Source: a virus
Strand: one strand, 5' to 3'
DNA length: 20,711 nt
Virus genome (UHGV): UHGV-0163620
The stretch's first letter is position 1; every line of letters starts with the position of its first letter. Shown here piece after piece: positions 148 through 20,711 of this stretch. The notes below the pieces were generated by a model. The model was not told the origin of the DNA. It saw nothing but the letters and a program-made list of their open reading frames with translations, and searched no databases. A program made the position numbers and the translations under genes.

Positions 148-1008
148 TTAGTTATGTAACTGCTTCCGGAATACAACAGCTGACGCACTGCAACGCAAAA
201 TGCGTTTGATTGTGTCAACTGAGGCAACAGATTTGCACTGTTCAATATCATCAACGATGACCACGTCCAGATCCGGTATTGAGCGGGTATGCAATGTTTT
301 TGCACTAATAACATCACAGCCATTCAGTGGTCGAATATCTGCATCTTCAGGCACTACCAGAAGCACACGTTTTCCCGGTGCAGAAAAGCCAGCAGCAAGA
401 GTGCGTGACAATAAAGTCATTCCGCTGCGTGGCTTCATACAAATTTCAGAAATATGATTCTTTTCGTCCAAATGATGCTGGACATCATTTTTATCATCAC
501 TCAACAACTCTGCTGTTAATACAATCCCTGCTGTCTCAGATTTCCAGGAAATGCTGATATCCTGATCATCTGCATCAACATCATATTCCATCGAGTAAGG
601 ACTAAAGCTACGTCCAACGAACGCATCATTTACCAGTACACGCCCACCCTGTCTGACCTGAAAGTCAACGCGCCCTGAAAGCTGATTTGCTGTTACAAGC
701 AATGCCTTTTTTCTTTTTGTTTTATTGCTCATTGCCACCAACTGTTCAGCCATCTCTCTTGTCACACTACCAGAAACTCTTTCTTGAATTTTCACAGAAA
801 ATTTTCTGGATGTAGTAGCATCGACATTAAAAAATCTGGATGTCATCAGGCAGTTATTAACAATTGGCATCAGCTCACTTACGATTGTAAAAAATTCCCG
901 GTAAAGCTCATTTTGCTTTTCAACACACAGCTTTCCACAATCGTCCAGCTTACGCTCAAGAGCACTTAACCTTTCCATTATTGAATTAATTTTTTGCAAC
1001 TCTTTCAT
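148..1008 (-). CDS. hypothetical protein, 287 aa, distal gene of the late transcription unit
   Basis: Long ORF; ATG at 1008 preceded by AGGAGG (rc of 1014-1019); ORF-track start at 1041 is a GTG inside the palindrome at 1033-1048; N-terminal coiled-coil-like segment; no family recognised. Confidence 0.6.
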   Translation of the reverse strand: MKELQKINSIMERLSALERKLDDCGKLCVEKQNELYREFFTIVSELMPIVNNCLMTSRFFNVDATTSRKFSVKIQERVSGSVTREMAEQLVAMSNKTKRKKALLVTANQLSGRVDFQVRQGGRVLVNDAFVGRSFSPYSMEYDVDADDQDISISWKSETAGIVLTAELLSDDKNDVQHHLDEKNHISEICMKPRSGMTLLSRTLAAGFSAPGKRVLLVVPEDADIRPLNGCDVISAKTLHTRSIPDLDVVIVDDIEQCKSVASVDTIKRILRCSASAVVFRKQLHN

Positions 1009-1032
1009 CAAAACCTCCTGACAAAGATACCG

Positions 1033-1048
1033 TGCGACCACGGTCGCA
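1033..1048. other. sopC-like 16-bp inverted repeat TGCGACCACGGTCGCA (candidate SopB/ParB centromere site), copy 1
   Basis: 7-bp inverted arms around a 2-bp centre; same 16-mer or its reverse complement at 4043, 9238 and 11681; differs from the F-plasmid sopC core TGGGACCACGGTCCCA (quoted from memory) at one position per arm. Confidence 0.6.
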
Positions 1049-1068
1049 AACGAGAAACAAAGAGATTT

Positions 1069-1380
1069 TTATGCTACAGAGGAACAAGCTGGCGGGTAAT
1101 TCAGCGTAGTGAATACCGGCATCTCCATCTTGTATGCGTAATGATACTCAGCAGTTGCTCCAGCAGACGCTTTCCAGCCAGGAAGCATCAAAATAGCATC
1201 AGCACAACGAAGCATTGCAAAGCAAATATCCATGTATTCACGTTGTGTCAGACCATTAGGCAAAGTGGCTGGATTCAAGACAGAGTGACCATGTCGTGAC
1301 AAACGATCTGCCTCTTTATTAAAGGCGTCACGATTAAAGTTCTCATATCCCGTCATTGGCCCGGCAATATAAATTTTCAT
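1069..1380 (-). CDS. DUF4406 / nucleoside 2-deoxyribosyltransferase-like protein
   Basis: N-terminal MKIYIAGPMTG motif typical of the family; 103 aa; directly downstream of the spanin genes. Confidence 0.7.
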   Translation of the reverse strand: MKIYIAGPMTGYENFNRDAFNKEADRLSRHGHSVLNPATLPNGLTQREYMDICFAMLRCADAILMLPGWKASAGATAEYHYAYKMEMPVFTTLNYPPACSSVA

Positions 1381-1421
1381 TCACTATCCAACAAATTGAG
1401 CTCGTTTTTGATACAGAGGGA

Positions 1422-1859
1422 TTAATTCAGGCATTGCGTCTTGATGTATTCCTGCAAGTAGTTAACCTGCGCAGTTATCCTGTCGATCCCACTTCGGAGA
1501 CGGTAATAATTGAGTTCAGCATCTGCTGTAAGTCTTGGGCTTTCTCCATTGCCCATGCCGCTGGCTCCGGTCGTTGACTTTGCACAGGTGGCGGCGACTT
1601 GCAGGCGCTTACGCCCAGCAGAAACATCAGCACGGAGGCTTTCGATAGTCGCGTTAGCATCAGCAAGCTCCTTTGTATATCTGGCATCGAGTTCCGCTAC
1701 GTCACGTTGACGCTTCTGCATATCAGCGATTGTGGATGTGGCTTTATCGCGCTGCTCTTTGTAGGCGATGGCGTTATCACGGTAATGATTAACAGCCCAC
1801 GACAGGCAGACGATGATGCAAATAACCAGAGCGGAGATAATCGCGGTTACCCTGCTCAT
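1422..1859 (-). CDS. Rz: i-spanin Rz (lysis)
   Basis: Begins [26 protein letters not shown], near-identical to lambda Rz N-terminus; ATG at 1859 overlaps endolysin stop (ATGA); ORF-track start at 1871 is a GTG. Confidence 0.85.
1475..1660 (-). CDS. Rz1: o-spanin Rz1 lipoprotein, embedded in +1 frame within Rz
   Basis: Embedded ORF with signal peptide [20 protein letters not shown] (lipobox VSAC) and proline-rich mature part; start taken at internal Met. Confidence 0.7.
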
Positions 1860-2356
1860 TGTTGACCCCACAAACAGACTTCACGCTCAATCTCACGACG
1901 AGTCATCAGGCCTTTCCATTGCTTACCGCCAGCAGATATCCAGCGACGTAGCTGATCACATGCGCCTTTGATATCGCCCTGGTTTATTTTGCGAAGAAGC
2001 GTCGATGTTCTGAAATTACCAGCACCCACGTTGTAAACGAACGAGTAAAGAGCGCCGCGCGTTGTTTCCGGTATATCGACTTTGATGTACGGGTTAATTT
2101 GTCTGGCGACAGTGGCAAGGTCTTTATTCAGGAGAGCTTTGCATTCTGCTTCGGTATACGTTTTACCTAGCATGATGTCTTTTCCAGTGTGTCCATAACA
2201 TACAGTCCATACGCCAACAATATCTTTGTATGGTATGTAACTGACACCTTCCAGACCATCGTTACCACTTGGGCCAGTGATGAGCATAGACGCTATGGCA
2301 ATAGCCCCGCCACCAATAGCAGCTGTGACAGCTTTGCGTAATGATGACTGCATCAT
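1856..2356 (-). CDS. R: SAR endolysin (T4-lysozyme-like, glycoside hydrolase family 24), phage 21 R type
   Basis: N-terminal signal-anchor-release segment [16 protein letters not shown]; catalytic triad spacing E-9-D-6-T in [18 protein letters not shown]; 166 aa. Confidence 0.9.
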
Positions 2357-2625
2357 ATTTCCTTCGGTGCTCTCTTCCCCAGCTCTCCAATAACCATCGC
2401 TGTAGCAGAAAGATTATTGGTATTAGTTTTATCCAATATGTCCTGCAATATCTTCGTGCGCTTCATCTGCTCGCGTTTATTGAGCCGGTATGTAAGCACA
2501 CCGAGGATAATGCTGAACGCGACACCGATAATGAAGCCCCAATCCTGCAATGACAGGCTGGCAAAGAACGCAGCAAGACCAGCGCTACCATAAGATGCAC
2601 TGCTGTATCGTTCATCCATCTTCAT
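2353..2625 (-). CDS. S: class II holin (pinholin-like) with dual-start motif MKM
   Basis: Two predicted TM helices; Met1-Lys-Met3 start as in holin/antiholin pairs; GAGG Shine-Dalgarno upstream; stop overlaps endolysin start. Confidence 0.75.
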
Positions 2626-2720
2626 ATCTCTTACCTCGCAATAGTTGCTGAGGTTTCGGCTTGGAAACTATATGGCGAAAATAACCCCTACCAAAAACGG
2701 CAGGGGAATATATTCTCCAG

Positions 2721-3797
2721 TTACTCAAATAACTTTTTCACTTCATCAACTGTCTGAAGATAACGTTCGCCCTCAATCTCAATACCTATTGCCTGACGTC
2801 CTAACTTCAGCGCAGCTTTAATAGTTGAGCCTGATCCCATAAAGAAATCGGCAACGATATCTCCGGGGCGTGAACTACTCTTTATAATATGTTCCATCAT
2901 CGCTGCAGGTTTTTCACATGGGTGCTTGCCAGGATAATATTGCACAGGAGGAAACTCCCATACATCGGTATAAGGTACATCAGCAGTAACATGAAATGGA
3001 CGGCGTAAATTTTCATACTGAGCCTTCAAATCATCATACTGCTTCTTTACTTCCTCATAATGCAATTTCAGATCGCTATAACGCTTTTCATGTTCTGAAT
3101 AATCAACATTAAAAGGATATGGACACGGGACACCGAGTGAATCTGCCTTCCTGCGAAATAATTCGCATAGTTTATTAAAATCAATTAATGATGGAAGCCG
3201 CCACTGCGAATAAGAAAACCAGTGTGAACACATCTGCTTTCCTGTCGCTGAATTAATGTCTGCGGCTGATATATCTAACTGACGGCGAGCCAGCGAAAAA
3301 GCATCAATTAGTGGAGAAAAAATATTTTTTCTTAAATCTGCACATTTTGAAGCATAACCTGACTGACCTTTAGCATAACCTGACGCGCCGTAATGCTCTG
3401 CAAATAATATTCTTTCAGTAGCAGGAAAATAAGCCCTTAAACTTTCTTTATGACAACCGCGCCACATACCACTGGGTTTAGCCCAAATGATATGGTTCAG
3501 AACATTGAAACGGTCGCGAGTTAATAATTCAATTTTTGACGCAAGGCGAGAGCCGGTAAACATATACAGGCTGCCATTAGGGGCCAATATCCGCCAAAAT
3601 TCTGCCAAAAATTCGTCAATCCACCCCAAAAAGTCAGCATCGCTATCCCACTGGTTATCCCATGCGTTAGCCTTTACGCCGAAGTATGGTGGGTCTGTTG
3701 CAATCAAATTGACCGAGTTATCAGGGATGGTTTTGATAAATTGCAGAGAATCTGCGCAAACGAGTTGTGCGCCATGAATATTAGTGGTTTTGAACAT
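2721..3797 (-). CDS. DNA methyltransferase, beta-class amino-methyltransferase (N6-adenine or N4-cytosine), orphan
   Basis: DPPY catalytic motif near N-terminus (LIATDPPYF) followed by C-terminal AdoMet motif FxGxG (DFFMGSGST); start set at second Met (3797) by family N-terminus pattern, alternative ATG at 3842. Confidence 0.8.
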   Translation of the reverse strand: MFKTTNIHGAQLVCADSLQFIKTIPDNSVNLIATDPPYFGVKANAWDNQWDSDADFLGWIDEFLAEFWRILAPNGSLYMFTGSRLASKIELLTRDRFNVLNHIIWAKPSGMWRGCHKESLRAYFPATERILFAEHYGASGYAKGQSGYASKCADLRKNIFSPLIDAFSLARRQLDISAADINSATGKQMCSHWFSYSQWRLPSLIDFNKLCELFRRKADSLGVPCPYPFNVDYSEHEKRYSDLKLHYEEVKKQYDDLKAQYENLRRPFHVTADVPYTDVWEFPPVQYYPGKHPCEKPAAMMEHIIKSSSRPGDIVADFFMGSGSTIKAALKLGRQAIGIEIEGERYLQTVDEVKKLFE

Positions 3798-3932
3798 AGC
3801 TATTATTTTTTTGCCTGGGTAAGCTAACCCGGCGATGCGCATCGCGGGTGGGCTTTAGGTTCAGCCTATAGCTCTGGCATGGGTTGACCGCAGGACAAGC
3901 TGCAACTTGTCCTGCGCCCACTTTTCAGGCAC

Positions 3933-3954
3933 AAAAAAACCGCCATAAAGGCGG
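3933..3954 (-). terminator. intrinsic terminator in late-operon leader (tR'-like)
   Basis: On minus strand: 5-bp GC stem CCGCC/GGCGG (3940-3954), 5-nt loop, followed by a run of seven U (plus-strand A run 3933-3939). Confidence 0.6.
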
Positions 3955-3993
3955 CTTGTTGGCTGTTGGGTACAAAAAACCCAACTTAACAAA

Positions 3994-4022
3994 ACAATAA
4001 CTAAAAACCGTCATTTTGCCAA
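3994..4022 (-). promoter_or_regulatory. candidate late promoter (PR'-like)
   Basis: Minus-strand -35 TTGGCA (4022-4017), 16-17 nt spacer, -10 TTATTG/TATTGT; sits about 35-50 nt upstream of the leader terminator; judged by eye only. Confidence 0.3.
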
Positions 4023-4042
4023 GCTTTTTCGTTTTTGTGCTG

Positions 4043-4058
4043 TGCGACCGTGGTCGCA
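4043..4058. other. sopC-like 16-bp inverted repeat TGCGACCGTGGTCGCA, copy 2 (extends to a 24-bp palindrome 4039-4062)
   Basis: Exact reverse complement of copy 1; lies about 21 bp upstream of the candidate late promoter -35. Confidence 0.6.
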
Positions 4059-4064
4059 CAGCTT

Positions 4065-4292
4065 TTAGAAAGTTGCCTGCTTATATTCATCGGTCAAAGA
4101 ATATCGACCAGATCCGCTACGCTTTGCAACCCCAAAACAGATCATCTGTTCGATGATAAATTCAACGGCAGCTTGACTCAAAAAACAGGCTTCGCTTAAC
4201 TCTTTCAGGGAAATGCGTGGGTATCCACGCATAACACATTCCACACTCAGGGCCGCTTCAGTCATATTTCCACGAATTTCATTAATATTCAT
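4065..4292 (-). CDS. small hypothetical protein, 75 aa, possible winged-helix DNA-binding fold
   Basis: ORF with GAGAGG Shine-Dalgarno before the ATG at 4292; helix-turn-helix-like segment; function not recognised. Confidence 0.5.
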   Translation of the reverse strand: MNINEIRGNMTEAALSVECVMRGYPRISLKELSEACFLSQAAVEFIIEQMICFGVAKRSGSGRYSLTDEYKQATF

Positions 4293-4305
4293 AACGCCTC
4301 TCTAA

Positions 4306-4527
4306 TCAATCTTGAAACTGGAAATCAACATCAGCCATAAAGCGGTTCAACTCAGCCAGTTTTGGCCCCATAGTCCCAACTAAGCGACCAGCCAGTCGGT
4401 CTGTTAGGTTGGTACTGTTGAAACCATATTCCTTTTCGAAACGTTCAACCTTCTGCCACAACTCATACAGTTCGTTAGCTATCTCCGCAACGTCGTCGCG
4501 CATTTTTTCGTTACCTTGATAATTCAT
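4306..4527 (-). CDS. small hypothetical protein, 73 aa
   Basis: Start moved to the ATG at 4527, which has a GGAGG Shine-Dalgarno (rc of 4533-4537) 5 nt upstream. Confidence 0.5.
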   Translation of the reverse strand: MNYQGNEKMRDDVAEIANELYELWQKVERFEKEYGFNSTNLTDRLAGRLVGTMGPKLAELNRFMADVDFQFQD

Positions 4528-4692
4528 AATATCCTCCAAATTCATATAGTTAGTGGGTTATTACCCCTCAATGACACGAACTGTAACTCTGCCAAACGAA
4601 CACATCCAGTGTTATTTTTCGCTTTTTAGTGAAATTTTTAATTTGCGTTGTTTTCTTGTTTTGGTGTATTTTATGGATATGGAGGCTATAAT

Positions 4693-5004
4693 ATGTTTAA
4701 CGTGATAACCCACCCTGCAGCACTGGATGAACTGCTTGAACTACCAGATGATTTGCGAGGTCGCATGACCAGATTAATTGAGCGACTGGAGAAAGAAGGC
4801 AACAAACTGAAGATGCCCCATAGCCGTGTAATAGGTGGAGGGCTTTTTGAACTACGAGTAGGGGATAAAAACATCGCAAGAACGCTGTACGCCTACGCGA
4901 CTGGTAACGAAATTTATCTATTGCATGCATTTGTAAAAAAGACACAGAAAACACCGGTGAAGGCTATCGAAATCGCCAGAACTCGCCTGAAGGAGATGAA
5001 CTGA
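4693..5004 (+). CDS. RelE/ParE-superfamily toxin, HigB-2 / Gp49-like (DUF891)
   Basis: About 103 aa with family-typical fold signature; toxin-first order; GGAGG 7 nt upstream of the ATG at 4693; stop overlaps the next start (TGATG). Confidence 0.7.
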   Translation: MFNVITHPAALDELLELPDDLRGRMTRLIERLEKEGNKLKMPHSRVIGGGLFELRVGDKNIARTLYAYATGNEIYLLHAFVKKTQKTPVKAIEIARTRLKEMN

Positions 5005-5291
5005 TGAAAGCGAAAGGCATCCCGTTTAACGAAGTAAAAGAAAAACTCCTCAACACTCCAGAAGCCGTCAAAGGATATGAAGAGGCCGACAAAGAGCTGG
5101 AGATGGTCGAAATGTTATACGAAATGAGGGAAAGAGCAGGTTTAACGAAATCAGCTCTGGCTGAACGAATGGGGTTGCGACCGTCAGCCATCAGCCGCCT
5201 GGAAAGCAATCCTTTAGGGGCAAGTATGAAAACTTTGGCTAAATATGCTCATGCCTGCGGCGCAACCATCGATATTCGCGCTGTTTATTAA
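5004..5291 (+). CDS. HTH XRE-family antitoxin (HigA-2-like)
   Basis: 95 aa with C-terminal helix-turn-helix; translationally coupled to the upstream toxin. Confidence 0.7.
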   Translation: MKAKGIPFNEVKEKLLNTPEAVKGYEEADKELEMVEMLYEMRERAGLTKSALAERMGLRPSAISRLESNPLGASMKTLAKYAHACGATIDIRAVY

Positions 5292-5333
5292 TTAGACTCT
5301 TTTACTACCCCGTCTAGAAGGGCGGGGTGTGCA

Positions 5334-5537
5334 TCAATGATGTGAACGCTCAACAGCGATAGTTTGCTGACAATGCTGGGCAATCTCTCGCGACATGTTG
5401 ATGAGTCGTGAAACCTCACCAATATGTAGGCTGGCTTCTGGAGAAGCCAGGGTGACGCTAACCAGATCCAGAACGGCGTCAATATCTCTTAAATTTGAAT
5501 CGAGTTGTTCAAGAGTTGATACGGCTGCTTCAGACAT
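5334..5537 (-). CDS. LexA-controlled small protein, 67 aa, candidate SOS-inducible antirepressor (AntC-like)
   Basis: ORF begins 39 bp downstream (minus strand) of a near-consensus LexA box; identity as an antirepressor is inferred from N15 biology recalled from memory. Confidence 0.5.
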   Translation of the reverse strand: MSEAAVSTLEQLDSNLRDIDAVLDLVSVTLASPEASLHIGEVSRLINMSREIAQHCQQTIAVERSHH

Positions 5538-5575
5538 TAAATCTCATACCATTTAACTAAAAAAGGTTATTTATA

Positions 5576-5591
5576 CTGTATAAAATTACAG
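5576..5591. promoter_or_regulatory. LexA (SOS) box CTGT-N8-ACAG
   Basis: TACTGTATAAAATTACAGGG at 5574-5593 matches CTGT(N8)ACAG with an AT-rich spacer; overlaps the candidate -10 region for the 5334..5537 gene. Confidence 0.7.
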
Positions 5592-5619
5592 GGTAAAACT
5601 CAAACTTTACGGTCAATTT

Positions 5620-5862
5620 TCAATGAATTAACTGCGTAAACTGCTGTGTGACCCGATACTTATGCTCTCTCCCTATGCCACGATCAACTTTCTCAAGAAG
5701 TCCAGTACGGACAGCAGAATCAAGCATCCTTTTAACAATTCTGCTATTTAACCCAACATCAAAAGAAAGCATCGAAGCGAAAACAAAACCATCACCACCA
5801 TCAGAAAAGCTCTTTTCGCTCCGTTTTCGTATCATTTCAAAAAGCAATGCCTTTTTATCCAT
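5620..5862 (-). CDS. hypothetical protein, 80 aa
   Basis: ORF with GGAGGG Shine-Dalgarno 4 nt upstream of the ATG at 5862; no family recognised. Confidence 0.5.
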   Translation of the reverse strand: MDKKALLFEMIRKRSEKSFSDGGDGFVFASMLSFDVGLNSRIVKRMLDSAVRTGLLEKVDRGIGREHKYRVTQQFTQLIH

Positions 5863-5871
5863 TTATCCCTC

Positions 5872-5885
5872 CGTGACCAGTCACG
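5872..5885. other. 14-bp palindrome CGTGACCAGTCACG (second dyad-site class), copy 1
   Basis: Identical 14-mer at 11927-11940 and its reverse complement at 16951-16964; abuts the Shine-Dalgarno of 5620..5862 and spans the stop of 5881..6207. Confidence 0.55.
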
Positions 5886-6207
5886 CTTTGAGCGCAAGTT
5901 TCAGCCTCGTGGTTGTAAGGTGGCATGACCCTTCGCCATCAAAAATGCATTCTGAAACAGGCATTTTTTGACCACATCGCGGGCAAGTAGTAGATAGCTG
6001 CTTCTGCAGCTCCTTATAGTTTTTCCTGATCAGCAAACCAATGACTTCGTTCTCCGAATATGGAACTCGCCCTGGTCTACGCAATACACAAATTTCCCCC
6101 AACATACGTAACTCGTCAGGTTCTAGAATCCAGTCCCGTCTTGATGTGCCTTCCTTCTTCAACCGTTCCCTGCGTCTCCTTTGCCGTTCTGCCGGTGTCA
6201 GCGCCAT
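5881..6207 (-). CDS. hypothetical protein, 108 aa, possible zinc-ribbon (CPRCG...C...C)
   Basis: ORF with GGAGG Shine-Dalgarno before the ATG at 6207; basic N-terminus and cysteine cluster. Confidence 0.5.
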   Translation of the reverse strand: MALTPAERQRRRRERLKKEGTSRRDWILEPDELRMLGEICVLRRPGRVPYSENEVIGLLIRKNYKELQKQLSTTCPRCGQKMPVSECIFDGEGSCHLTTTRLKLALKA

Positions 6208-6222
6208 AAATCCTCCTGAAAA

Positions 6223-6753
6223 TTACTTAACCCAATTAACTACACCGCCAGCGGCCACAACCGCCCTTTCACAGTCACGCTCATATCTCAAAGGTTGAAA
6301 TACACCATCAATAAAATATTTATCTCCACCAAACGCTGCAGGAAGTGAAACAGAAAACTGAATATGACCATCCGGAGTTACCGGAGAGTTGCCAGCCAGT
6401 CTACGCAACACAGCCTTAACGGCCTCAATACGGTCATCATCAACTTTTTCTACAATATTGGAATTTAAATACTTCGAAGCCTTGCTATGCCAATCGCTGG
6501 TTTTAGGGTCTTGTCCATCCATCAAACGCCAAGCTTCAGCGATTAACTCATAGCCAGTGACAGTGGCTTCCTGCGCATCACCAATAAGTCGTGTAATCTC
6601 TCTTTCAAGCCGACCGCCTAGCTCTGTTTTAGTGCAATGTTCTGACCAATCGCCAGCCTCAAGCAGCGCGAGAATGCTTAAAATATCGTCCAATAGAACG
6701 GTAGTATTATCGACTTCCTTCTGAAACTCACCGGCTACTGATTTATGCATCAT
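6223..6753 (-). CDS. hypothetical protein, 176 aa, with C-terminal PVTPDGHI motif
   Basis: ORF with tandem ATG start (MMH); shares a PVTPDG[HW]I motif with 6964..7698. Confidence 0.55.
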   Translation of the reverse strand: MMHKSVAGEFQKEVDNTTVLLDDILSILALLEAGDWSEHCTKTELGGRLEREITRLIGDAQEATVTGYELIAEAWRLMDGQDPKTSDWHSKASKYLNSNIVEKVDDDRIEAVKAVLRRLAGNSPVTPDGHIQFSVSLPAAFGGDKYFIDGVFQPLRYERDCERAVVAAGGVVNWVK

Positions 6754-7052
6754 TCGTCATCCTCATCTGAGTCATCCTCATCACAGGATGAGAGTAGTGG
6801 GTTAGTCATTCGCCCTACTTGAGTGGCGTAGCCACGCCGACAGAGATTGCGCAGCACACTGTATATTTCGAACATCTCGGTTCGTTCATCACCAACATCA
6901 AGCTCAGATGCTATAGCGTGGCATTCAGTCGCGAGAGCCGATATTTTCTGAAATAACTCTGCTTTATTCACTCTTCGACTCCTGCGGCGGTTCTGGTAGT
7001 GGCATCCAGTGAGTTGCTTGCTCAATACCATTACCCGGCTTAATCGTTGCAT
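6750..7052 (-). CDS. hypothetical acidic-tail protein, 100 aa (start uncertain)
   Basis: ORF whose stop overlaps the start of 6223..6753; its 5' part overlaps 6964..7698 in another frame, so one of the two is mis-started or spurious. Confidence 0.35.
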   Translation of the reverse strand: MQRLSRVMVLSKQLTGCHYQNRRRSRRVNKAELFQKISALATECHAIASELDVGDERTEMFEIYSVLRNLCRRGYATQVGRMTNPLLSSCDEDDSDEDDE

Positions 7053-7698
7053 CTCCGCGCCGAAAGGTGCTTCCGGTATAGCGTGCGGAGCATATTAGCG
7101 GTTCAACCAGAGAGCTATCGAAATTCACCGAAATAAGCACGTTCTGGCCCTTTTCAGGCATTCGCTCACTACAGCTTATCCAACCATCCGGAGTTACCGG
7201 ATAGTTGCCAGCCTCATACGCGACCCTTATCCAGTGCATAAGCATTTCAGTACTTACACATCCACAATCAACATCAATTTTGTCATGCTGCTGTTCCAGC
7301 CATTGCTCAAAAGTTAACTTGTAAGTTTGGCTTACAGGTTTGGCTTCCAGTTCTGCTATGTGATTTTTGGCTGATTCCAACTCAATCGACAATTTTTCCA
7401 ACTGCTCTTTATGATTTTTATATTCCTGATATGCGTGCCAGGACTGACCTTTGCGCACACTATCAGTGATATCAGTAATCTGTTCTGGTGTTAGCGTGGT
7501 CAGTGGCTGTGATGGGAAAATAAGCACTTTCCCGGAATCCCAATCAAAACCAGTGTGAATTGACTGAACCTCAACTGAAGGTGTTGAACCAATGCTGCCA
7601 GGCGAATGAACAACGATTGTTACATCCATATCGCGACGATGGCTGTGGTTGTTGGACAAAATACGATTCACCAACTCAGAAAATTTAGAAAATTTCAT
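6964..7698 (-). CDS. hypothetical protein with DUF551-like C-terminal domain
   Basis: 244 aa; C-terminal NYPVTPDGWISCSERMPEKGQNVLISV...THWMPLPEPP resembles the prophage DUF551 pattern (from memory). Confidence 0.55.
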   Translation of the reverse strand: MKFSKFSELVNRILSNNHSHRRDMDVTIVVHSPGSIGSTPSVEVQSIHTGFDWDSGKVLIFPSQPLTTLTPEQITDITDSVRKGQSWHAYQEYKNHKEQLEKLSIELESAKNHIAELEAKPVSQTYKLTFEQWLEQQHDKIDVDCGCVSTEMLMHWIRVAYEAGNYPVTPDGWISCSERMPEKGQNVLISVNFDSSLVEPLICSARYTGSTFRRGDATIKPGNGIEQATHWMPLPEPPQESKSE

Positions 7699-8063
7699 GC
7701 TGATTCACCTTTCTTTGCTCTCTCCTGTCGGAACATCACTATCATCAGGTCGCCTTTTGTCGCTATCTTGGCTGTTGTGCCTGGCTCAATGCGGCTAAGT
7801 TCAAATGCGTCATAGAACGCCTCCAACGCTTTCTGGCGTTTTTCCTGTTTGCGGCGCTTTCCCCACTGCTTTAGAAAAACAGAGGCCGCCCACTTCCCCG
7901 CACTGAACATGATGTAAAACCAACCGAGAAGTGCCAGACCGGTATTTAGGGCCGTATCGATCGTTATCGTGGTGTCGATATTCACTACGCCACCTCCTGA
8001 AAATTTCCCTGATAAAACGCCAACACACGCTGCATAACTTCGCTCTTCCGACAATCGTGACAA
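7695..8063 (-). CDS. hypothetical protein, 122 aa, one hydrophobic segment (start uncertain)
   Basis: ORF; its 5' end overlaps 7985..8404 in another frame, so the true start may be an internal Met (around 7910). Confidence 0.35.
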   Translation of the reverse strand: MSRLSEERSYAACVGVLSGKFSGGGVVNIDTTITIDTALNTGLALLGWFYIMFSAGKWAASVFLKQWGKRRKQEKRQKALEAFYDAFELSRIEPGTTAKIATKGDLMIVMFRQERAKKGESA

Positions 8064-8404
8064 ATCATGTTCAAGCGCCTGTCGTAACGACGTATTTCTC
8101 CGTCAGGTAATGACCAGATAAGGTCTGGATCAACCACTACCGATTTCTTCGGCTTTACTCTTGATAGTTTTTTACGGGCGTTTTGCCAGTCCTTGCGTGC
8201 TTGTGCAGACAGAAATATCCCGGAGCCAGAGATATACAAATCACCACTGGCAGCAAGCTCTCTTGATAAACGACTAACAGCACACCGGCTAATACCAGTT
8301 TCATCCGCAAGTTGCCTAACCGTTCCTCGTCCATTCAGGCGCACGAGTTCCACAATTTGTTTATTCAGTTCTTCCCTCTGTTCTGGTGTAAAAGCCTTTG
8401 CCAT
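7985..8404 (-). CDS. putative HTH DNA-binding protein, 139 aa
   Basis: Helix-turn-helix-like segment RQLADETGISRCAVSRL; C-terminal cysteines; family not recognised. Confidence 0.5.
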   Translation of the reverse strand: MAKAFTPEQREELNKQIVELVRLNGRGTVRQLADETGISRCAVSRLSRELAASGDLYISGSGIFLSAQARKDWQNARKKLSRVKPKKSVVVDPDLIWSLPDGEIRRYDRRLNMICHDCRKSEVMQRVLAFYQGNFQEVA

Positions 8405-9003
8405 TACGATTCTCCTTGCCCTTTTACAAGACGGGAGAAAATTGCGGATACATATTTAGCCTGATGAATAGCATCAGCCAGGGCATTGTGTCGTTCGCCA
8501 TCAAATGGCATATCTTTTTTAGGATTAAAACCAATAAACTGACCAAGATTAACGATTGTTCGAACATCCTGATCATTAAAATATTCCCACGGACAGGCTA
8601 AGCCAACGCGCTCATAAGCACCGCGTAAAATTACATTATCGAACGTTGCTCCATTTCCCCATACTTTCAATTTTTTTAAATTACATGCATGGCAAGTAAT
8701 AAAGTGTGATAATTCAAAAAGTGCATCCTTAATATCAAGGGCATCATTAGTACAAATAGCGGCTCTGGCTTCCTTGCTCTGTTTCAACCACCATAAAATG
8801 GTATCACCATCGGCGATACCACCATTCAACATCGAGCTTCTGAGATTCACTGGCACATAAAAAGTAGGACCTAATTCCTCACTTTCTGGAGAAAAAAACA
8901 CTGCCCCGATAGAAACAATTGGAGCACATGTGTTAGTACCCATTGTTTCAAGGTCAATCATTACATCAGACCGTTTCCTGTCGTAAATAATCTGATTAGT
9001 CAC
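8404..9003 (-). CDS. DnaQ-like 3'-5' exonuclease (DEDDh)
   Basis: Exo I motif MIDLETMGT, Exo II WGNGATFD, Exo III HNALADA; ORF-track start is a GTG, true start may be the Met in MIDLETMG. Confidence 0.65.
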   Translation of the reverse strand: MTNQIIYDRKRSDVMIDLETMGTNTCAPIVSIGAVFFSPESEELGPTFYVPVNLRSSMLNGGIADGDTILWWLKQSKEARAAICTNDALDIKDALFELSHFITCHACNLKKLKVWGNGATFDNVILRGAYERVGLACPWEYFNDQDVRTIVNLGQFIGFNPKKDMPFDGERHNALADAIHQAKYVSAIFSRLVKGQGES

Positions 9004-9026
9004 GAATAATTCTCCTCAACGTTTAT

Positions 9027-9230
9027 CTATACCCAAATTTTCTGTTGATATGTTCTGGATGGTTTTGGCGTTCTTTCTGATTCAGGTAAATGAACATAAA
9101 CGCAATATCCATCACCTAAAAAATCAGAACGAACAACCAGAACTTTCTTACCACGCCGCCGATAAGTATCTGAAAGACGCTCTGCTTCATCATGCGTCAT
9201 CGGCCCCTGCTTAAATGGCGTTATTTTCAT
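9027..9230 (-). CDS. small hypothetical protein, 67 aa
   Basis: ATG at 9230; ORF-track start at 9254 is a GTG lying inside the palindrome at 9238-9253. Confidence 0.4.
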   Translation of the reverse strand: MKITPFKQGPMTHDEAERLSDTYRRRGKKVLVVRSDFLGDGYCVYVHLPESERTPKPSRTYQQKIWV

Positions 9231-9531
9231 TTTCTTGTGCGACCACGGTCGCACCCTCTCTGATTTCCAAGTAACGCTTAATCCAAAGATTTTCTATATG
9301 CTTATTACCTGGCTGATTTGATAAATACCAATCGGCAATTACAGACTGCTTATTACTATCTGGTCGTGTCCTGTAACCACAAGTTGGACACCAGATAACA
9401 TATTCATTTCTTACCCCCGAATACCTTAATTCTGGCTTCGACGGTTTCCTGAACATAACTTGTTTACAAAGACAGAATGGCACTTCCTGCCCGATGGCGT
9501 TTGATGATTTCACTGCGCTTCTCCGCCGCAT
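9211..9531 (-). CDS. zinc-ribbon protein, possibly Lar-like restriction alleviation family (tentative)
   Basis: CxC ... CxxC pattern (VPFCLCK ... WCPTCGYRTRP ... ADWYLSN) loosely resembling Lar/RalR small proteins as recalled from memory. Confidence 0.4.
   Translation of the reverse strand: MRRRSAVKSSNAIGQEVPFCLCKQVMFRKPSKPELRYSGVRNEYVIWCPTCGYRTRPDSNKQSVIADWYLSNQPGNKHIENLWIKRYLEIREGATVVAQENENNAI
9238..9253. other. sopC-like 16-bp inverted repeat TGCGACCACGGTCGCA, copy 3
   Basis: Identical to copy 1; 8 bp upstream of the ATG at 9230 and inside the 3' end of ORF 9211..9531. Confidence 0.6.
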
Positions 9532-10174
9532 TTAATAATGCAGTTCGATTTAAGCTCAGACATCGCGACTTAATTAAAAGCCAGCGTTCTTTATAATCTT
9601 GTCTCCAGCTATCAATAGATATATTCAGTAGAAAACTCAGATGCCTGTCCTGTTCTCTCTCATCAACTGCCTCAGCACACGTAAGTTCTGATTTAACCTG
9701 TTGTGCCGCGTAATAAATCAATTTCCGCATGGCTTTTTTCGTGGAGGCCTTCATTTTTTTAAAGCCGCCCCCCGAATGAGCAACCAGAAAATCAAGCCAT
9801 AACCACTGACAAACAATCACATCATTGTTGTAATCAGGCTTGCATCCGTAGCAATAATAAAGCCAGGCTGATTCCTCGTTATTCAACTGACCAATAGCCC
9901 TGCGCCAGCTGGCGCTCTGAAAATCAATATCAGTGAGCAACATTGATGATTGTTTAAATGTTTTCCCCTGGTGGAATCTAACCGGCTCAGCAGGAACGGA
10001 CACTTCGTATGAGTTATCATCCCCCACACTGATTGACCGGACTGGTTTATTGTTAAACCGTCCTGATCTACCGAGACGCATCTGCTCAAGCTGGACCTCC
10101 AGAATGCCACGCTGGCGATAATGAACATCAGCCAATGCCGTAGAGACGCAGCTGCGTATATACTCAAGCTCCAC
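9464..10174 (-). CDS. hypothetical protein, 236 aa, in the position of a Q-like late regulator (function unproven)
   Basis: Long ORF immediately downstream of the cro-like gene; N15 immB is recalled as cB-cro-Q; no antiterminator motif recognised; GTG start overlaps the cro-like stop. Confidence 0.45.
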   Translation of the reverse strand: MELEYIRSCVSTALADVHYRQRGILEVQLEQMRLGRSGRFNNKPVRSISVGDDNSYEVSVPAEPVRFHQGKTFKQSSMLLTDIDFQSASWRRAIGQLNNEESAWLYYCYGCKPDYNNDVIVCQWLWLDFLVAHSGGGFKKMKASTKKAMRKLIYYAAQQVKSELTCAEAVDEREQDRHLSFLLNISIDSWRQDYKERWLLIKSRCLSLNRTALLNAAEKRSEIIKRHRAGSAILSL

Positions 10175-10385
10175 GCTTACGACTCTCCTTAATCGACTGC
10201 TTTACCCGCCGAGTTGTAAAGTCACTCTTCAGCTTATAAGCAGTACGAACTTCAATATCGCTTTGCCGCAATGAAGGAATCTCTCCAGCGGTTAACCATT
10301 GGTAAACAGCTCCGGGTGTTACACCTACCCCTGCCGCTGCTTTTTCTACACTGCCAAAATGGCGAATAAGTTCTTCTGGTTTCAT
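10164..10385 (-). CDS. cro: Cro-like HTH regulator (YdaS/Cro family)
   Basis: 73 aa from the ATG at 10385; HTH segment GVGVTPGAVYQWL; divergent from the repressor gene across a region with two dyad operators. Confidence 0.7.
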   Translation of the reverse strand: MKPEELIRHFGSVEKAAAGVGVTPGAVYQWLTAGEIPSLRQSDIEVRTAYKLKSDFTTRRVKQSIKESRKRGA

Positions 10386-10412
10386 GTTGTTATTATAAAC
10401 AATAAACAACAA

Positions 10413-10454
10413 TTAAAGCCAGCTATAATAAATAAATTTTATAGCCAGCTATAA
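10413..10454. promoter_or_regulatory. immunity-switch operators: two 16-bp dyad sites (TTAAAGCCAGCTATAA at 10413-10428; TTATAGCCAGCTATAA at 10439-10454)
   Basis: Two 7-2-7 inverted repeats with centres 26 bp apart in the AT-rich region between divergent cro-like and repressor genes. Confidence 0.55.
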
Positions 10455-10476
10455 GAAGATCATTTATGATTACAGT

Positions 10477-11073
10477 ATGAAAACACGAGGCGAACGACTG
10501 AAAGCACGCCGTTTAGAGATGAAGCTGACGTTGCGAGAAGTTGCTGAGGCTGTCGATATCTCTATAGCAGGCGTCCAAAACTTAGAACGTGGCGACGTAA
10601 TGCCGTCACTGGAGATAGGTATTGCCCTGGCTAAGTGCTTACGCAAGCCAGTGCATTGGGTGCTATATGGGACAGAATATGACCCTGATCGCATTCCTGT
10701 TATTGGCACAACTGAAAGTGGGCCGGATGAAGAGTGGAAGCCGGGACAGGTTCCAAATACTGAGCGATTCCTGCCATTCATCAGCCAGCGCAATACTGTG
10801 TATGCGTTAACTATCAGCAATCTTACGCAGGGAAACTATCAGCCAGGCGATTTTCTCCTGGTCGATTCTGCGCTGGAACTGGTCCCCGGCGAGGATGTTC
10901 TGGTTCGTGATACTGCAGGAAATATCACTATCCAGCGCCTGGCCCGTTTTGATGATGAAAATTACTATCTGGATGGAACAAACTCACAACGCGCCATCTT
11001 CAGGAAAAGCGATCTTGAATTTGTTCACCAAATAGTCGGAACGATCAAATCATTCATGGTTGAGGGTAGATGA
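10477..11073 (+). CDS. cB: prophage repressor, CI/CB-like (N-terminal XRE HTH, C-terminal S24-peptidase-like domain)
   Basis: N-terminal HTH MKLTLREVAEAVDISIAGVQNLERG; C-terminal beta-rich domain alignable by eye to lambda CI but without an obvious GxSM serine motif or catalytic lysine. Confidence 0.75.
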   Translation: MKTRGERLKARRLEMKLTLREVAEAVDISIAGVQNLERGDVMPSLEIGIALAKCLRKPVHWVLYGTEYDPDRIPVIGTTESGPDEEWKPGQVPNTERFLPFISQRNTVYALTISNLTQGNYQPGDFLLVDSALELVPGEDVLVRDTAGNITIQRLARFDDENYYLDGTNSQRAIFRKSDLEFVHQIVGTIKSFMVEGR

Positions 11074-11174
11074 CTTAATACGGGGTTTATTGTTTGCTGT
11101 AAATCTGGTTTAATGCAGGGCATATGTTCTGTGGGTTGACTCAGGTTACAGCAGCAGAAAAAAGACGAAAAAAA

Positions 11175-11203
11175 ACCCGAGTCGGCAAACTCGGGTCCTT
11201 TTC
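11175..11203. terminator. bidirectional intrinsic terminator between repressor gene and repA
   Basis: 8-bp stem ACCCGAGT/ACTCGGGT with 6-nt loop; plus strand followed by CCTTTTC, minus strand followed by a run of 8 U. Confidence 0.55.
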
Positions 11204-11318
11204 AGGAAGCAGCCACAACAACGCGACAGATTCCGTCAATTCAAGATGCGTTTATTGTGGCTGCTCCTGCGGATTTTTTCAACCCGAAAAAACATAATTC
11301 GCATGGAATGGCTAAAAA

Positions 11319-14300
11319 ATGACATTAAACGATTTCTATGCGGATCGCTTTGGCAGCGATCCGTTCTCGCTAATTGAAGCAGCACGGGATGAACTAACCG
11401 AGCTGGCACAGATGGCTGGTATCAACTGGCCTGCCTGTTCCGACAACATCCAACTCAACCCTCGCGGGGGGGTTGAGCGTTACTCTTCATACAATAAAAC
11501 ATCTCCAGAAGCTCTCGAAAAGAGCCTGAAAGGACGCGTAGAAATTTACTCCAGGCTGGAACACAGCAAAGGGATTGATTACCCGTTCATTAACTTCGTC
11601 CATAAAGGCAGCGATGCTGGCTCATGGAGCGGTTTCTCCTTCCTGTTTTCTGAATATCGCCGTGAGCAACAACGGAATAATGCGACCGTGGTCGCACAAC
11701 CGGAAGAAGAACGGGAAAGAATAGAACGTCAGGCCGAAGCACGTCGTCGCCGTGAAGAACAAAAACGAATTAATGACCTGAAAAACAACCAAATGGACCA
11801 TGAACGTTTGCTGGGATGGCTGGCATTCCACAGCGCGTGGGAACATGCTCCGGCTGAAGACGGCTCATGGCCATATGCGATTAAAAAAGGTATTCGTGAC
11901 GTTTTTAGTTCATGTGATGTGCGTCGCGTGACCAGTCACGACAGTGCGAAATGGAGCCGGGGGTCAACCACATATATGGCTATCCCTCTGGCTCACCTGG
12001 ACGGTCGTTATGATGGTCGTATTGTGGGTTGGCAGCGAATCGACAAACAAGGTGGGAAATACCAGACCAGCGCAGTAACCAGCGGCGATTTCGTCGGTGC
12101 CTGCTTTGTTATCGGTGAGCTGAAAGGGGCGCAAAACATCGCTGTTACAGAAGGTTTTGCTACTGGTGCATCCATCTGGCTTGCCACGAAAAAAGATAAA
12201 CGCTTTGACGCTGTGGTTGTCGCTGTATCCGCTAACAACATGGTTCATGTTGTGGAACAACTGGTAAACATGTACCCGGCGGCAAAAATCACCTGCGCAC
12301 TGGATAATGACCGGAAATCTGCCACAGAAGGAAAAGGGAATACCGGCCTGCGGACTGGCTATGAAATCTTATCGAAATTCAACGATGTCCGCTGCGTCTA
12401 CCCAACTTTTGAAGACGATCCGCAAATGGAGTGCAGTGACTTCAACGACCTGCACAAACTACGTGGACTTCGTGAAACAGCACGTCAACTATTTGCAACA
12501 GCAAACCGCCTGAAAACCGGCACTGATTTGCTATCTCTGACGCTCAACCGCCTGAAGACAATTAAGCGGGATAACCGTCGTACTTTTGCCAAAGAGCTGC
12601 TGAGAGCGGTGGATATTGGCATGCTAACCTGTCCGGTTCCTAACAGTCCGTCAGATTTATTTAACATGTTCTGCATCGTTCTGCGTGAAATGGGACTGGA
12701 AAATATCTATCGTGCTACGGTAAAAGACCACATTGCCCGTCGCCTGAATAAAAAGTGCCGTATTGCCCAGGCTCCGCGCTCTTTCAGCGAACGCATAACT
12801 GATCCCAATAAACGACCTCAACATATCACCTATAAGCGTTTTGAAACTTCGGTAATGACCGATGATGTCCTGAAGTACGTGCAATCACTACAGGGGATAG
12901 TCATCGTCCGTGCTGGTATGGGTTCCGGCAAATCTACTGGATTGTTACGACCGTTAATGCATAGCTCAGAACGTGGTATCTCTGTTGCTCACCGTGTCTC
13001 CCTTATTGGTGGCCTGTGGGAAATGATGACAGAAGGAAAAGGTGTAAAAGCCGATATCCTGCACTATCAGGATCCTGGCTATCAGGAAATGGCTCCATAC
13101 GCCAGTAAACTGACCATCTGCATAAACTCGATTGTTAAAAACTGCTGGCAACCGTTGATGCGCCAGCACGACTATTTTGGCTTTGACGAGGCCACACAAG
13201 GGCTACGTGCCGTTCTTTCCGGTCGGGCTATGGAAAACCCGGTGGCTGTATTCAATACGCTAATTGACGCGCTGGCCAGAACGGAACAACACCCAATCAT
13301 GGTGGATGCTGATGCGAACGATCTGCTGGTTGACCTGGCTGAACTGGCTATGAAACGCCGTGAAGAACTAGGTTTACCGGCATGGCTGCAGATCCACGTA
13401 ATTGAATTACCTGTTGATGTTCGCAACCGCGAAACAGGTGAGCCAATCCGGGTTTTTTATACAGAAAAAGATCGCATCATGACCGAGGTGGTGAAAGCTG
13501 TATCGGATGGCGAAAAAATTATGTTGGCCACCGACAGCTCCACCTTTGCAGAAGATGTGACCGCCACCCTGAGAATGCATTTCCCTGGCAAGAAATTTCT
13601 GTGCGTAAACCAGAAAAGCAAACAGGATGAAGAAGTCGATGCCTTTACCAGCCAGCCAAAAGTAATGGTGATGAAATACGATGGACTGATCTACAGCCCG
13701 TCGATTTCCTCCGGGGTGTCATTTGAGAAAAAACATTTTGACCGTCATTTCGGCATGTTCTGCGGTGAAGTTGTGCCCAGCGACGCAGTGCAAATGCTAC
13801 GCCGCGACCGTACAGCAAAAGAATTTATTATTGGCTTTGATAAAGCCCGTGCAAAACGCGAGACTGATCCGCAAAAAATAGAACGTGCATTCGCCCAGGC
13901 ATTACTTGCTACCGCAGGCATGAACGGTGAACTGACGGATGTCATTTTCGATGGCGACCGTATATCAATGGGGGTAGCCAATACCGACTTTACCAGGATG
14001 AAAATTAAAGCAGCCGCAATTGAAGCGTCTGCGCGTAACGACTACGCCAGCAACATGATCTGCATCATGCACAGCGACGGTTATAAGGTATCACCATTAG
14101 CTACCGATTATGCCGCGAACGATTTTGGTAAAGAGCTGCGCAAAGAAGCGCGGGATATTGTGTGGGAACAGACGCTGGATCTGCACCTCAATACAGAGAC
14201 ACCAGAAGAATCAGAGCGTGAAGAACTACTAAAAAAACGTGCGCTAACGCTTGAAGAACAGGCAAAACTGGTCCGCTGGGATATTGAGAACGAACTGAAA

Positions 14301-15302
14301 TTACCGGTTGAAGAAGGCACACTGAAATTCTATTTCGATGGCGCTCGAGACAAAATTCGCCGTTATGAAACGATGCTGCTTGATGAAGTCACAGCCCGTC
14401 GTTATGACCGTGAAGAAGCGGCTATCAATTTTACATACGCATATCGCCAGACCGGACAGTGGCAATATTTTGTGGTGACCGCGATGACACGCGAGCAGGC
14501 TGATGATGTATTCAAAGCGAAATTTCCGGGAATAATCGACTACAAGGTAAAAGCCACCCCAGCTGTTGAGGTCGGCATGCGCGGATTCTATGCGCTTAAA
14601 TCAGCAACTCTCCGGCAGTATTTTATCGACTGCGGTATCGACCCTGAAACTATGACTGGCGAAGCGACGCAGGAACGCCTTAAGTTCGCTCGAGATAATC
14701 TCATGACAGCAGAACGCCGTGACCTGTTGAATAACGTTCTGCGCATTGGTGGTTTTATGACACCAAAAGGGAAGCCTAAAGTGCCGGAAGCACTGTTTAA
14801 AAACATCTGCGACTCTCTCGGCCTAAAAACAGGAAAACGTCGCGGCAGAGATGGCGATAAGCGCCCGACATTGCGTTTTGTTGAGCCTGAGTCTGTAGCA
14901 TTTATGCTTGATATTCTTGCGCAACGTCAGGAGGACGGTATGACGTTGAAAGCTCGCAAGGCAGAAAAATCAACGACCGAAGTGGATCGCGATTTGTCAT
15001 TAAATATATATATGAATGGTGAAACGAGATCCACAAACACGGAGGAACAGGATCCCCCTCGTTCAGCTATATCACAGGCTTTGGCTGTATTGCCGGTGGC
15101 TGTTCCTGAGTCCTGGGCGATGAGTGCTCTGCCATCAGCCGAACTGGAATCTATCAGGGGGTGGTCAGTTGACAGCATCGCATACACGTTTGCAGCCCTT
15201 TATATGACTGAGTTTATGGATTTGCTGTCCGGTCATGAGATTAAGTTGCTGAAGGCTTTTATAGGCCCACGACATGCCAGCGATGAGTTTTGTGTAGTTT
15301 AG
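11319..15302 (+). CDS. repA: RepA-like multidomain replication protein (primase + helicase/origin-binding), 1327 aa
   Basis: Toprim-like segment (VTEGFATGAS ... ALDND); Walker A VRAGMGSGKST and Walker B FGFDEAT; size and architecture match N15 RepA as recalled. Confidence 0.85.
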   Translation: MTLNDFYADRFGSDPFSLIEAARDELTELAQMAGINWPACSDNIQLNPRGGVERYSSYNKTSPEALEKSLKGRVEIYSRLEHSKGIDYPFINFVHKGSDAGSWSGFSFLFSEYRREQQRNNATVVAQPEEERERIERQAEARRRREEQKRINDLKNNQMDHERLLGWLAFHSAWEHAPAEDGSWPYAIKKGIRDVFSSCDVRRVTSHDSAKWSRGSTTYMAIPLAHLDGRYDGRIVGWQRIDKQGGKYQTSAVTSGDFVGACFVIGELKGAQNIAVTEGFATGASIWLATKKDKRFDAVVVAVSANNMVHVVEQLVNMYPAAKITCALDNDRKSATEGKGNTGLRTGYEILSKFNDVRCVYPTFEDDPQMECSDFNDLHKLRGLRETARQLFATANRLKTGTDLLSLTLNRLKTIKRDNRRTFAKELLRAVDIGMLTCPVPNSPSDLFNMFCIVLREMGLENIYRATVKDHIARRLNKKCRIAQAPRSFSERITDPNKRPQHITYKRFETSVMTDDVLKYVQSLQGIVIVRAGMGSGKSTGLLRPLMHSSERGISVAHRVSLIGGLWEMMTEGKGVKADILHYQDPGYQEMAPYASKLTICINSIVKNCWQPLMRQHDYFGFDEATQGLRAVLSGRAMENPVAVFNTLIDALARTEQHPIMVDADANDLLVDLAELAMKRREELGLPAWLQIHVIELPVDVRNRETGEPIRVFYTEKDRIMTEVVKAVSDGEKIMLATDSSTFAEDVTATLRMHFPGKKFLCVNQKSKQDEEVDAFTSQPKVMVMKYDGLIYSPSISSGVSFEKKHFDRHFGMFCGEVVPSDAVQMLRRDRTAKEFIIGFDKARAKRETDPQKIERAFAQALLATAGMNGELTDVIFDGDRISMGVANTDFTRMKIKAAAIEASARNDYASNMICIMHSDGYKVSPLATDYAANDFGKELRKEARDIVWEQTLDLHLNTETPEESEREELLKKRALTLEEQAKLVRWDIENELKLPVEEGTLKFYFDGARDKIRRYETMLLDEVTARRYDREEAAINFTYAYRQTGQWQYFVVTAMTREQADDVFKAKFPGIIDYKVKATPAVEVGMRGFYALKSATLRQYFIDCGIDPETMTGEATQERLKFARDNLMTAERRDLLNNVLRIGGFMTPKGKPKVPEALFKNICDSLGLKTGKRRGRDGDKRPTLRFVEPESVAFMLDILAQRQEDGMTLKARKAEKSTTEVDRDLSLNIYMNGETRSTNTEEQDPPRSAISQALAVLPVAVPESWAMSALPSAELESIRGWSVDSIAYTFAALYMTEFMDLLSGHEIKLLKAFIGPRHASDEFCVV
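11681..11696. other. sopC-like 16-bp inverted repeat TGCGACCGTGGTCGCA, copy 4, inside repA coding sequence
   Basis: Exact 16-mer encoding residues A-T-V-V-A of RepA (codons 122-126). Confidence 0.6.
11927..11940. other. 14-bp palindrome CGTGACCAGTCACG, copy 2, inside repA coding sequence
   Basis: Exact copy of the 5872-5885 site; encodes R-V-T-S-H-D of RepA; 246 bp downstream of sopC-like copy 4. Confidence 0.55.
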
Positions 15303-15319
15303 AGGGTAGAAGCGTGGGA

Positions 15320-15586
15320 ATGATGCAAGAGTGCCTCGTTTTGATTGAAGGGTATGATCCGTATGTTGTTAACGTCAGCAGAATGGATACTGGCTATAGC
15401 GATTACAAAACTGGTCGAGAACTGCCGTTCACCATCATCAGGATGAATGGCTTTGGCGATGATGATGCTGTTTATTGCTGTATTGCCAGCGATAAAAACA
15501 TGGAAGACCGGACAGATGAAGCCCGTATGCTATTGAGGAAATATAAGGTAAAGCCGTTATCAGAGAATAACGCTGAGAGGGGTTAA
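15320..15586 (+). CDS. hypothetical protein, about 89 aa (start ambiguous)
   Basis: ORF immediately after repA; ORF-track start at 15290 overlaps the repA end, so the tandem ATGs at 15320/15323 are preferred. Confidence 0.45.
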   Translation: MMQECLVLIEGYDPYVVNVSRMDTGYSDYKTGRELPFTIIRMNGFGDDDAVYCCIASDKNMEDRTDEARMLLRKYKVKPLSENNAERG

Positions 15587-15588
15587 AA

Positions 15589-15984: not shown

Positions 15985-16073
15985 ATAGTGATGACTGTTC
16001 AAGTTAAACCGTTCTCGGCATATTTTATTTAATGGAATAACATATTATTAATCAAATAGGTTAAGTTAATATT

Positions 16074-16886: not shown

Positions 16887-16947
16887 CGGAACAATAACAT
16901 TGTTCATGTTCTGATCGTTTGTTCAAGCAAACTATAAAAACACCTGT

Positions 16948-16967: not shown

Positions 16968-16987
16968 TAAAATGTCTTTGCAAATTA

Positions 16988-20657: not shown

Positions 20658-20711
20658 ATTAGCACATAATTTCCCATTATACGCGCGTATAATGGGAAAT
20701 TATGTGCTAAT
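20658..20711. other. telomere resolution site (telRL-like), perfect palindrome of at least 54 bp truncated by the window end
   Basis: All 27 base pairs around the centre (between 20684 and 20685, core TATACGCGCGTATA) verified complementary; located 165 bp upstream of telN. Confidence 0.85.

Follow-up and report, generated by a model that had tools for sequence, protein, structure and literature searches.

Why should one 16-bp inverted repeat recur four times, kilobases apart, in a single stretch of viral DNA? The question is raised by UHGV-0163620 (20,711 nucleotides, referred to at its full length as the window), in which the first-pass annotation had noted the repeat, likened it to the SopB-binding site of the F plasmid, and proposed partition sites dispersed in the manner of N15. 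The evidence assembled here indicates, with a probability of roughly 0.9, that the four palindromes serve as dispersed centromere (parS-type) sites for a SopABC type Ia system carried by an N15-like linear plasmid-prophage.

One 16-mer in four dispersed copies

The TGCGACCNNGGTCGCA pattern, in which the arms TGCGACC and GGTCGCA enclose a central AC or GT, has exactly four matches in the window (Table 1), spread over 10.7 kb at spacings of 2.4-5.2 kb and nowhere forming a tandem array. As AC (the 1033 and 9238 copies) and GT (the 4043 and 11681 copies) are reverse complements of each other, all four copies represent a single 16-mer whose orientation alternates. A scan of the whole window, of the kind that the first-pass annotation had advised for the replicon, yielded no match beyond these four even with up to two mismatches allowed; shuffled sequences predict 0.00 exact matches and 0.05 with two mismatches, none of 100 shuffles contained an exact copy, and when repeated perfect inverted repeats were sought de novo, the 16-mer ranked first in the window. 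The earlier count is accordingly exact at every position, against a chance expectation of about zero, and the palindromes are confirmed as a real, non-random observation. Chance recurrence, or a functionless relic of duplication, has nothing in its favor beyond general possibility, and both the empty shuffles and the retention of the arms across N15, phiKO2, and many relatives despite diverging flanks leave it with a next to negligible probability.

The same cannot be said of a supposed 12-bp relic of the site, TGCGAGGTCGCA at 4754-4765, which proved to be a chance half-site within the open reading frame (ORF) of a RelE/ParE toxin. The GGTCGCA half-site occurs twice outside the four sites (2.1 expected), and the 12-mer is read in frame in the toxin ORF (D-L-R-G-R-M), where a 4-bp loss would cause a frameshift; the 12-mer is absent from N15.

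Likeness to the centromere sites of known partition systems

Oligonucleotides of the natural N15 centromere sites IR1-IR4 each contain TGCGACC-NN-GGTCGCA, N15 SopB forms foci on an IR1-IR4 array, and F SopB is nonfunctional with the N15 sites (PMC7205306, including its Table 4). The window shares with N15 the same 14 arm bases (TGCGACC/GGTCGCA), the same number of sites, and the same four places (within repA, past Q, ahead of the late promoter, and ahead of gene 59); the telN-repA-lysis arm bears every site. In N15, and in a near-identical relative of the window, sopAB adjoins the telomere site. In the N15 genome the sites stand at 33480 (in repA), 35931 (between Q and gene 41), 41125, and 45562 (between genes 58 and 59). 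The flanks of the window copies at 11681, 9238, and 4043 align with those of N15 IR1, IR2, and IR3, the neighboring genes being the same, and the 1033 copy occupies the IR4 position. Both the arm sequence and the IR1-IR4 positions of the N15-type dispersed Sop centromere are thus present, and the earlier reading is borne out by arms identical to those of IR1-IR4 at orthologous positions.

The two elements differ in their central dinucleotides (AC, TC, AT, and AC in N15; AC/GT throughout the window), in the repA copy, which is a perfect palindrome in the window and has one terminal mismatch in the N15 RefSeq record, and in SopB, the protein of the window's relatives being 74% identical to that of N15. 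The RefSeq repA site (NC_001901, 33480-33495) reads AGCGACCACGGTCGCA, its terminal mismatch being a synonymous GCT for GCA; unlike RefSeq, the published N15 IR1 oligonucleotide has a perfect TGCGACC arm (PMC7205306).

A second close counterpart is phiKO2 (NC_005857; Casjens et al. 2004), which carries four perfect copies of TGCGACCACGGTCGCA at the same relative positions, each labeled "putative plasmid partitioning site" in its GenBank record; one copy precedes the annotated late-promoter -35 by 19 nt. The four phiKO2 copies share one orientation, whereas those of the window alternate, and phiKO2 further differs in its host genus (it is a Klebsiella phage) and in its structural genes.

Likeness to F is more general: F sopC likewise employs a 16-bp inverted repeat of 7-2-7 architecture that is bound by a SopB dimer, and the SopB proteins are homologous. 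The F site is TGGGACCACGGTCCCA (PMC3597684), exactly as the first-pass annotation had given it, and the reported difference of one base per arm (TGGGACC in F, TGCGACC in the window) therefore stands. Whereas sopC consists of tandem 43-bp repeats beside sopB, each holding one such site, the window sites are single and dispersed; a search of the window with N at position 3 of the pattern returned no copy of the F-type TGGGACC..GGTCCCA, and the arrangement is not an F-plasmid sopC-type centromere.

Chromosomal parS sites are dispersed around the origin. The chromosomal ParB-parS systems resemble the window in that several dispersed 16-bp palindromes nucleate ParB complexes (PMC3597684); they differ in their consensus (TGTTNCACGTGAAACA), in their ParB subfamily, and in that parS is not embedded in phage regulatory regions.

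Conservation and distribution of the sites

Conservation was measured over 5-19 distinct orthologous contexts per site, drawn from relatives, with flanks of 60 nt. Identity is 0.90-1.00 within the 16-mer and 0.66-0.85 in the flanks. The IR3-type site reaches 0.99 between flanks of 0.66-0.78; at the IR2-type site the arms are invariant and variation is confined to the central dinucleotide, with flank identity of 0.73-0.83. The sole departures in orthologous contexts are in the central dinucleotide (IR1-IR3) and in the last base of the IR1 copy, where GCA becomes GCT in 3 of 13 sequences. Within repA, 5 of the 6 third codon positions in the site are invariant among 13 distinct relatives, compared with 5 of 40 in the flanks (Fisher p=0.001), and this freezing of synonymous positions points to purifying selection on the DNA and not only on the encoded ATVVA peptide.

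These data bear directly on a reading in which the palindromes would act as RNA hairpins (intrinsic terminators or attenuators) rather than as protein-binding sites. It draws on the N15 record, where the stem-loop over IR4 is labeled a putative rho-independent terminator, and on the intergenic location of three copies at gene ends; nevertheless, the sequence itself is invariant, not just its pairing, and no compensatory changes are seen. Moreover, a stem of 7 bp closed by a loop of 2 nt is sterically unfavorable, the window copies lack a trailing T-run, one copy lies within an ORF, and a terminator scan near 4043 chose a different hairpin, at 3957-3937, all of which makes a primary role as RNA hairpins highly improbable.

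In the complete relatives, every copy of the 16-mer lies in the telN-repA-lysis arm and none lies elsewhere. Among 120 IMG/VR stretches containing the 16-mer, 108 are N15-like; the remaining 12 have no DNA similarity to N15-like references, some being distant relatives and the rest compatible with chance. Exact copies without such similarity are found in L022, L064, and L077 (one 41.5-kb IMG/VR contig) and in L115. The 41.5-kb contig has three copies, a RepA-like protein of 22% identity, and a methylase of 58% identity, and in L115 a copy follows a Q-like gene (23% identical) at about 550 bp, which suggests that conservation of the site and of its placement reaches much further back in the family.

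The prophage arm and its probable sopAB partner

Megablast places the window among the N15-like (Ravinvirus) linear plasmid-prophages of Escherichia. Over 82-98% of its length, the window is 97-98% identical to the phages YDC107_1 and PhiR46_1 and to numerous 45-50-kb E. coli "plasmids"; identity to N15 and phiKO2 is about 75% at the DNA level across the alignable replication and immunity region. On the basis of the ORF list, Pfam, and the annotation of relatives, the gene order runs from the gp59-like, DUF4406, and lysis genes through the N6/N4 methylase, gp51/gp50-like genes, RelE/ParE toxin-antitoxin, small genes, exonuclease, and Q to cro, the CB repressor, repA, further small genes, the anti-immunity region, the Bro-N antirepressor, and telN. 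The terminal palindrome at 20658-20711 carries the N15-type telomere core CCCATTATACGCGCGTATAATGGG. Positions 8604-20711 are 100% identical to the 12.1-kb end compared of a 20.7-kb metagenome scaffold in ENA; as the window and this scaffold both end in the telomere palindrome, the contig stops at a hairpin telomere, and the window is essentially one whole prophage arm (telN-repA-Q-lysis).

The first-pass annotation had expected a sopAB operon beyond the telomere, an expectation upheld in relatives. No sopAB was found in the window itself, as is to be expected of an operon that would lie across the telomere palindrome at which the window ends. An exact look-up of the TelN protein led to an E. 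coli assembly contig of 46.8 kb (L127) with identical TelN and 99.92% DNA identity to window positions 8604-20705, in which sopA (388 aa, CbiA/ParA) and sopB lie on the far side of the tel palindrome, about 650 bp from telN, the SopB fragment carrying PF18090 (SoPB_HTH). The same telomere site joins telN to sopAB in L127, its outer half being slightly different. In two complete relatives (L003 and L004), ParA and ParB genes are found beside the other telomere. The lack of a partition operon, which the first-pass annotation had named as refuting its reading, is therefore not borne out by these replicons. SopB of L003, to which the 74% identity with N15 SopB refers, matches the structure of the F SopB DNA-binding domain (3MKY, E=6e-39). 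In an alignment of SopB from F, N15, phiKO2, L003, and L004, the "ELSAR" motif and the residue equivalent to F SopB R219 are invariant, and the four proteins whose elements have TGCGACC sites (N15, phiKO2, L003, and L004) share helix-turn-helix substitutions relative to F (S-R-K to D-R-N; TAK to TAG).

Two candidate whole-replicon references, YDC107_1 (L001, CP025712.1) and pG749_3 (L005, NZ_CP014491.1), were dropped because their telN arm is inverted-duplicated, with two protelomerase genes facing each other; these duplications are probably assemblies that read through the hairpin telomere and not true structures. No sopAB was found in the complete record of YDC107_1 or in the two-thirds of pG749_3 that were examined.

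Local anatomy of the sites

The placement of the copies also agrees with the first-pass annotation, with one near the late promoter, two 5' of gene starts, and one inside repA. The 1033 copy follows the DUF4406 gene at a distance of 20 nt and stands 24 nt upstream of the ATG (1008) of the gp59-like ORF; the 4043 copy lies 6 nt past the stop of the gp51-like ORF; and the 9238 copy follows Q at 210 nt and precedes an ORF of 57 aa (9027-9200, minus strand) by 37 nt. The late-promoter-like site consists of a -35 TTGGCA (4022-4017) and a -10 TATTGT (3999-3994) separated by a 17-nt spacer on the minus strand. N15 IR3 (41125-41140) is similarly placed 21 nt before the annotated late-promoter -35 at 41162, and the N15 record annotates a stem-loop at 41229-41250 that is equivalent to the window hairpin at 3957-3937. 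The layout of promoter and terminator near 4043 is that of the late promoter of N15 and phiKO2, the Q target, and the hairpin is likely the target of Q antitermination. As in N15, the sites bracket Q and abut the late promoter, a geometry that is conserved.

Table 1. Putative centromere sites and associated features of the window (20,711 nucleotides)
Feature	Position	Strand	Context or basis
SopB-type putative centromere site, N15 IR1 orthologue	11681..11696		repA codons 121-126, N-A-T-V-V-A
SopB-type putative centromere site, N15 IR2 orthologue	9238..9253		Exact match and N15 orthology
SopB-type putative centromere site, N15 IR3 orthologue	4043..4058		20 nt upstream of late-promoter-like -35
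SopB-type putative centromere site, N15 IR4 position	1033..1048		Single copy, between DUF4406 and gp59-like genes
Late-promoter-like site	3994..4022	minus	Counterpart of annotated N15/phiKO2 late promoters
Terminator-like hairpin	3937..3957	minus	Just downstream of late promoter
repA, primase/helicase-type replication protein, holds IR1-type site	11319..15302	plus	Pfam/ORF list and annotation of relatives
Q antiterminator gene, between IR1-type and IR2-type sites	9464..10174	minus	Pfam PF06323, E=4e-84
Protelomerase gene telN, telomere-proximal end of arm	18604..20493	minus	TelK/ResT Pfam domains
Telomere palindrome (telRL/telO-like), perfect 54 bp	20658..20711		Centre 20684/20685

Three copies immediately precede a promoter or gene start, a location that would also suit operators of another phage regulator (e.g., CB, Cro, or a gp46-like protein), by which late and replication genes would primarily be controlled. 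Such a function is very unlikely, given that the operators of N15 CB are annotated elsewhere (34056-34094 and 34729-34793), that the 16-mer departs from the F SopB site by one base per arm and has served in experiments as the SopB-binding centromere of N15 (PMC7205306), and that one copy is deep within the repA coding sequence.

Site number at the IR4 position

Most relatives carry an interruption of exactly 220 bp in the stretch homologous to window positions 880-1200. Of 24 related plasmids from PLSDB, 23 show it, and in these the 16-mer stands as two direct copies 220 bp apart, for five sites in total; E. fergusonii NZ_CP055678.1 alone among the 24 has the single-copy form seen in the window. 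Paired copies lie at 18535-18770 in L004 and at 18301-18536 in L001. The left flank of the 1033 copy is that of the first copy in the two-copy form and its right flank is that of the second, which fits the precise loss, or conversely the gain, of a 220-bp unit between the repeats. Where the IR4 copy is duplicated, the 204-bp module separating the two has no Rfam match, and its folding z-score of -3.2 is inflated by the pairing of the two palindromes with each other.

This difference in copy number resembles recombination between two copies and, together with an N6/N4 methylase gene at 2721-3842, could be taken to mean that the palindromes are targets of a DNA methyltransferase, restriction system, or recombinase borne by the element. 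The usual targets of methylases and restriction systems, however, are 4-8 bp in length and numerous, unlike four 16-mers at conserved positions, and the loss of 220 bp between 16-bp direct repeats requires no dedicated recombinase; such a function is extremely improbable.

A more speculative extension of the centromere reading, considered doubtful, is that SopB sites in this lineage may be more than centromeres, serving as regulatory and structural landmarks of variable number. Complexes nucleated by SopB at distances of 20-37 nt ahead of the late promoter and two gene starts could either silence the prophage's lytic genes or prime them, in which case gaining or losing a site would adjust partition and late expression together. 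The fifth site of most E. coli relatives would derive from a 220-bp module, bounded by two direct copies, that the window either lost precisely or never gained.

Further sequence features

A second dispersed palindrome, CGTGACNNGTCACG (CGTGAC and GTCACG arms around CA or TG), occurs three times in the window (5872-5885, 11927-11940, and 16951-16964), where 0.04 copies are expected. Orthologous copies stand at 28549, 33236, and 39268 in N15 and at 37662 and 43539 in phiKO2, and identity is 0.98-1.00 within the palindrome and 0.74-0.87 in its flanks. The 5872 copy overlaps the stop of the gp46-like ORF, the 11927 copy falls within repA, some 245 bp away from the SopB site, and the 16951 copy is just upstream of the anti-immunity RNA region; the palindrome is unannotated in the N15 and phiKO2 records, and no mention of it was found in the literature searched.

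Two Rfam matches above the gathering score lie on the plus strand, isrK at 17024-17099 (52.8 bits) and C4 antisense RNA at 17126-17213 (82.3 bits), upstream of the icd-like and Bro-N antirepressor genes in an anti-immunity region of the N15/P1 type. At the opposite end of the window, positions 1-68 form an A-rich low-complexity run (Tandem Repeats Finder, period 1, 68 copies) without a counterpart in any relative, and the alignments of relatives begin at about base 53-57; these bases are probably an artefact of assembly or of read ends.

Proposed role and significance

By homology with N15, SopB would bind these sites in the present element, where they would act as a centromere and could affect expression. 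A dimer of SopB (ParB family), encoded beside the other telomere of the replicon, would bind each palindrome via its helix-turn-helix domains and nucleate a larger SopB-DNA partition complex, by means of which the SopA ATPase would place the low-copy linear plasmid and segregate it when the cell divides. The same Sop complexes would probably also influence late-gene expression during lytic growth, by analogy with N15. The first-pass annotation had likewise suggested that binding of a partition protein could modulate expression; the idea is already published for N15 and is not new. The N15 Sop system with its dispersed IR1-IR4 sites was reportedly described by Ravin and Lane in 1999, by Grigoriev and Lobocka in 2001, and by Ravin, Rech, and Lane in 2008 (J Bacteriol 190:3538), and a single site is reported to be sufficient there; the last of these studies is said to have been motivated by the geometry of the sites around Q and the late promoter, and to have concluded that the Sop complex facilitates late gene expression in N15.

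Several points weigh against the assignment. Binding and a role in stability rest, for this element, on homology; the window has no sopAB, so that the link to the operon depends on near-identical and related replicons; and the 1033 copy could also work as a weak terminator, the hairpin of N15 IR4 being annotated as one.

The biology of the window sites is that of the already-described N15 Sop system in a new relative, as the first-pass annotation had correctly read it, the "relic" aside, and the significance beyond annotation is small. Nevertheless, the four-site dispersed arrangement of N15 is conserved base for base in a common lineage of E. coli telomere phage-plasmids whose database records (e.g., YDC107_1 and PhiR46_1) leave the sites unannotated, and the comparison provides clean evidence of selection at the DNA level, the interior of repA included. 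The sites could help in annotating N15-like elements and in planning experiments on stability or incompatibility, and the polymorphism between four and five sites constitutes a small natural experiment on centromere copy number.

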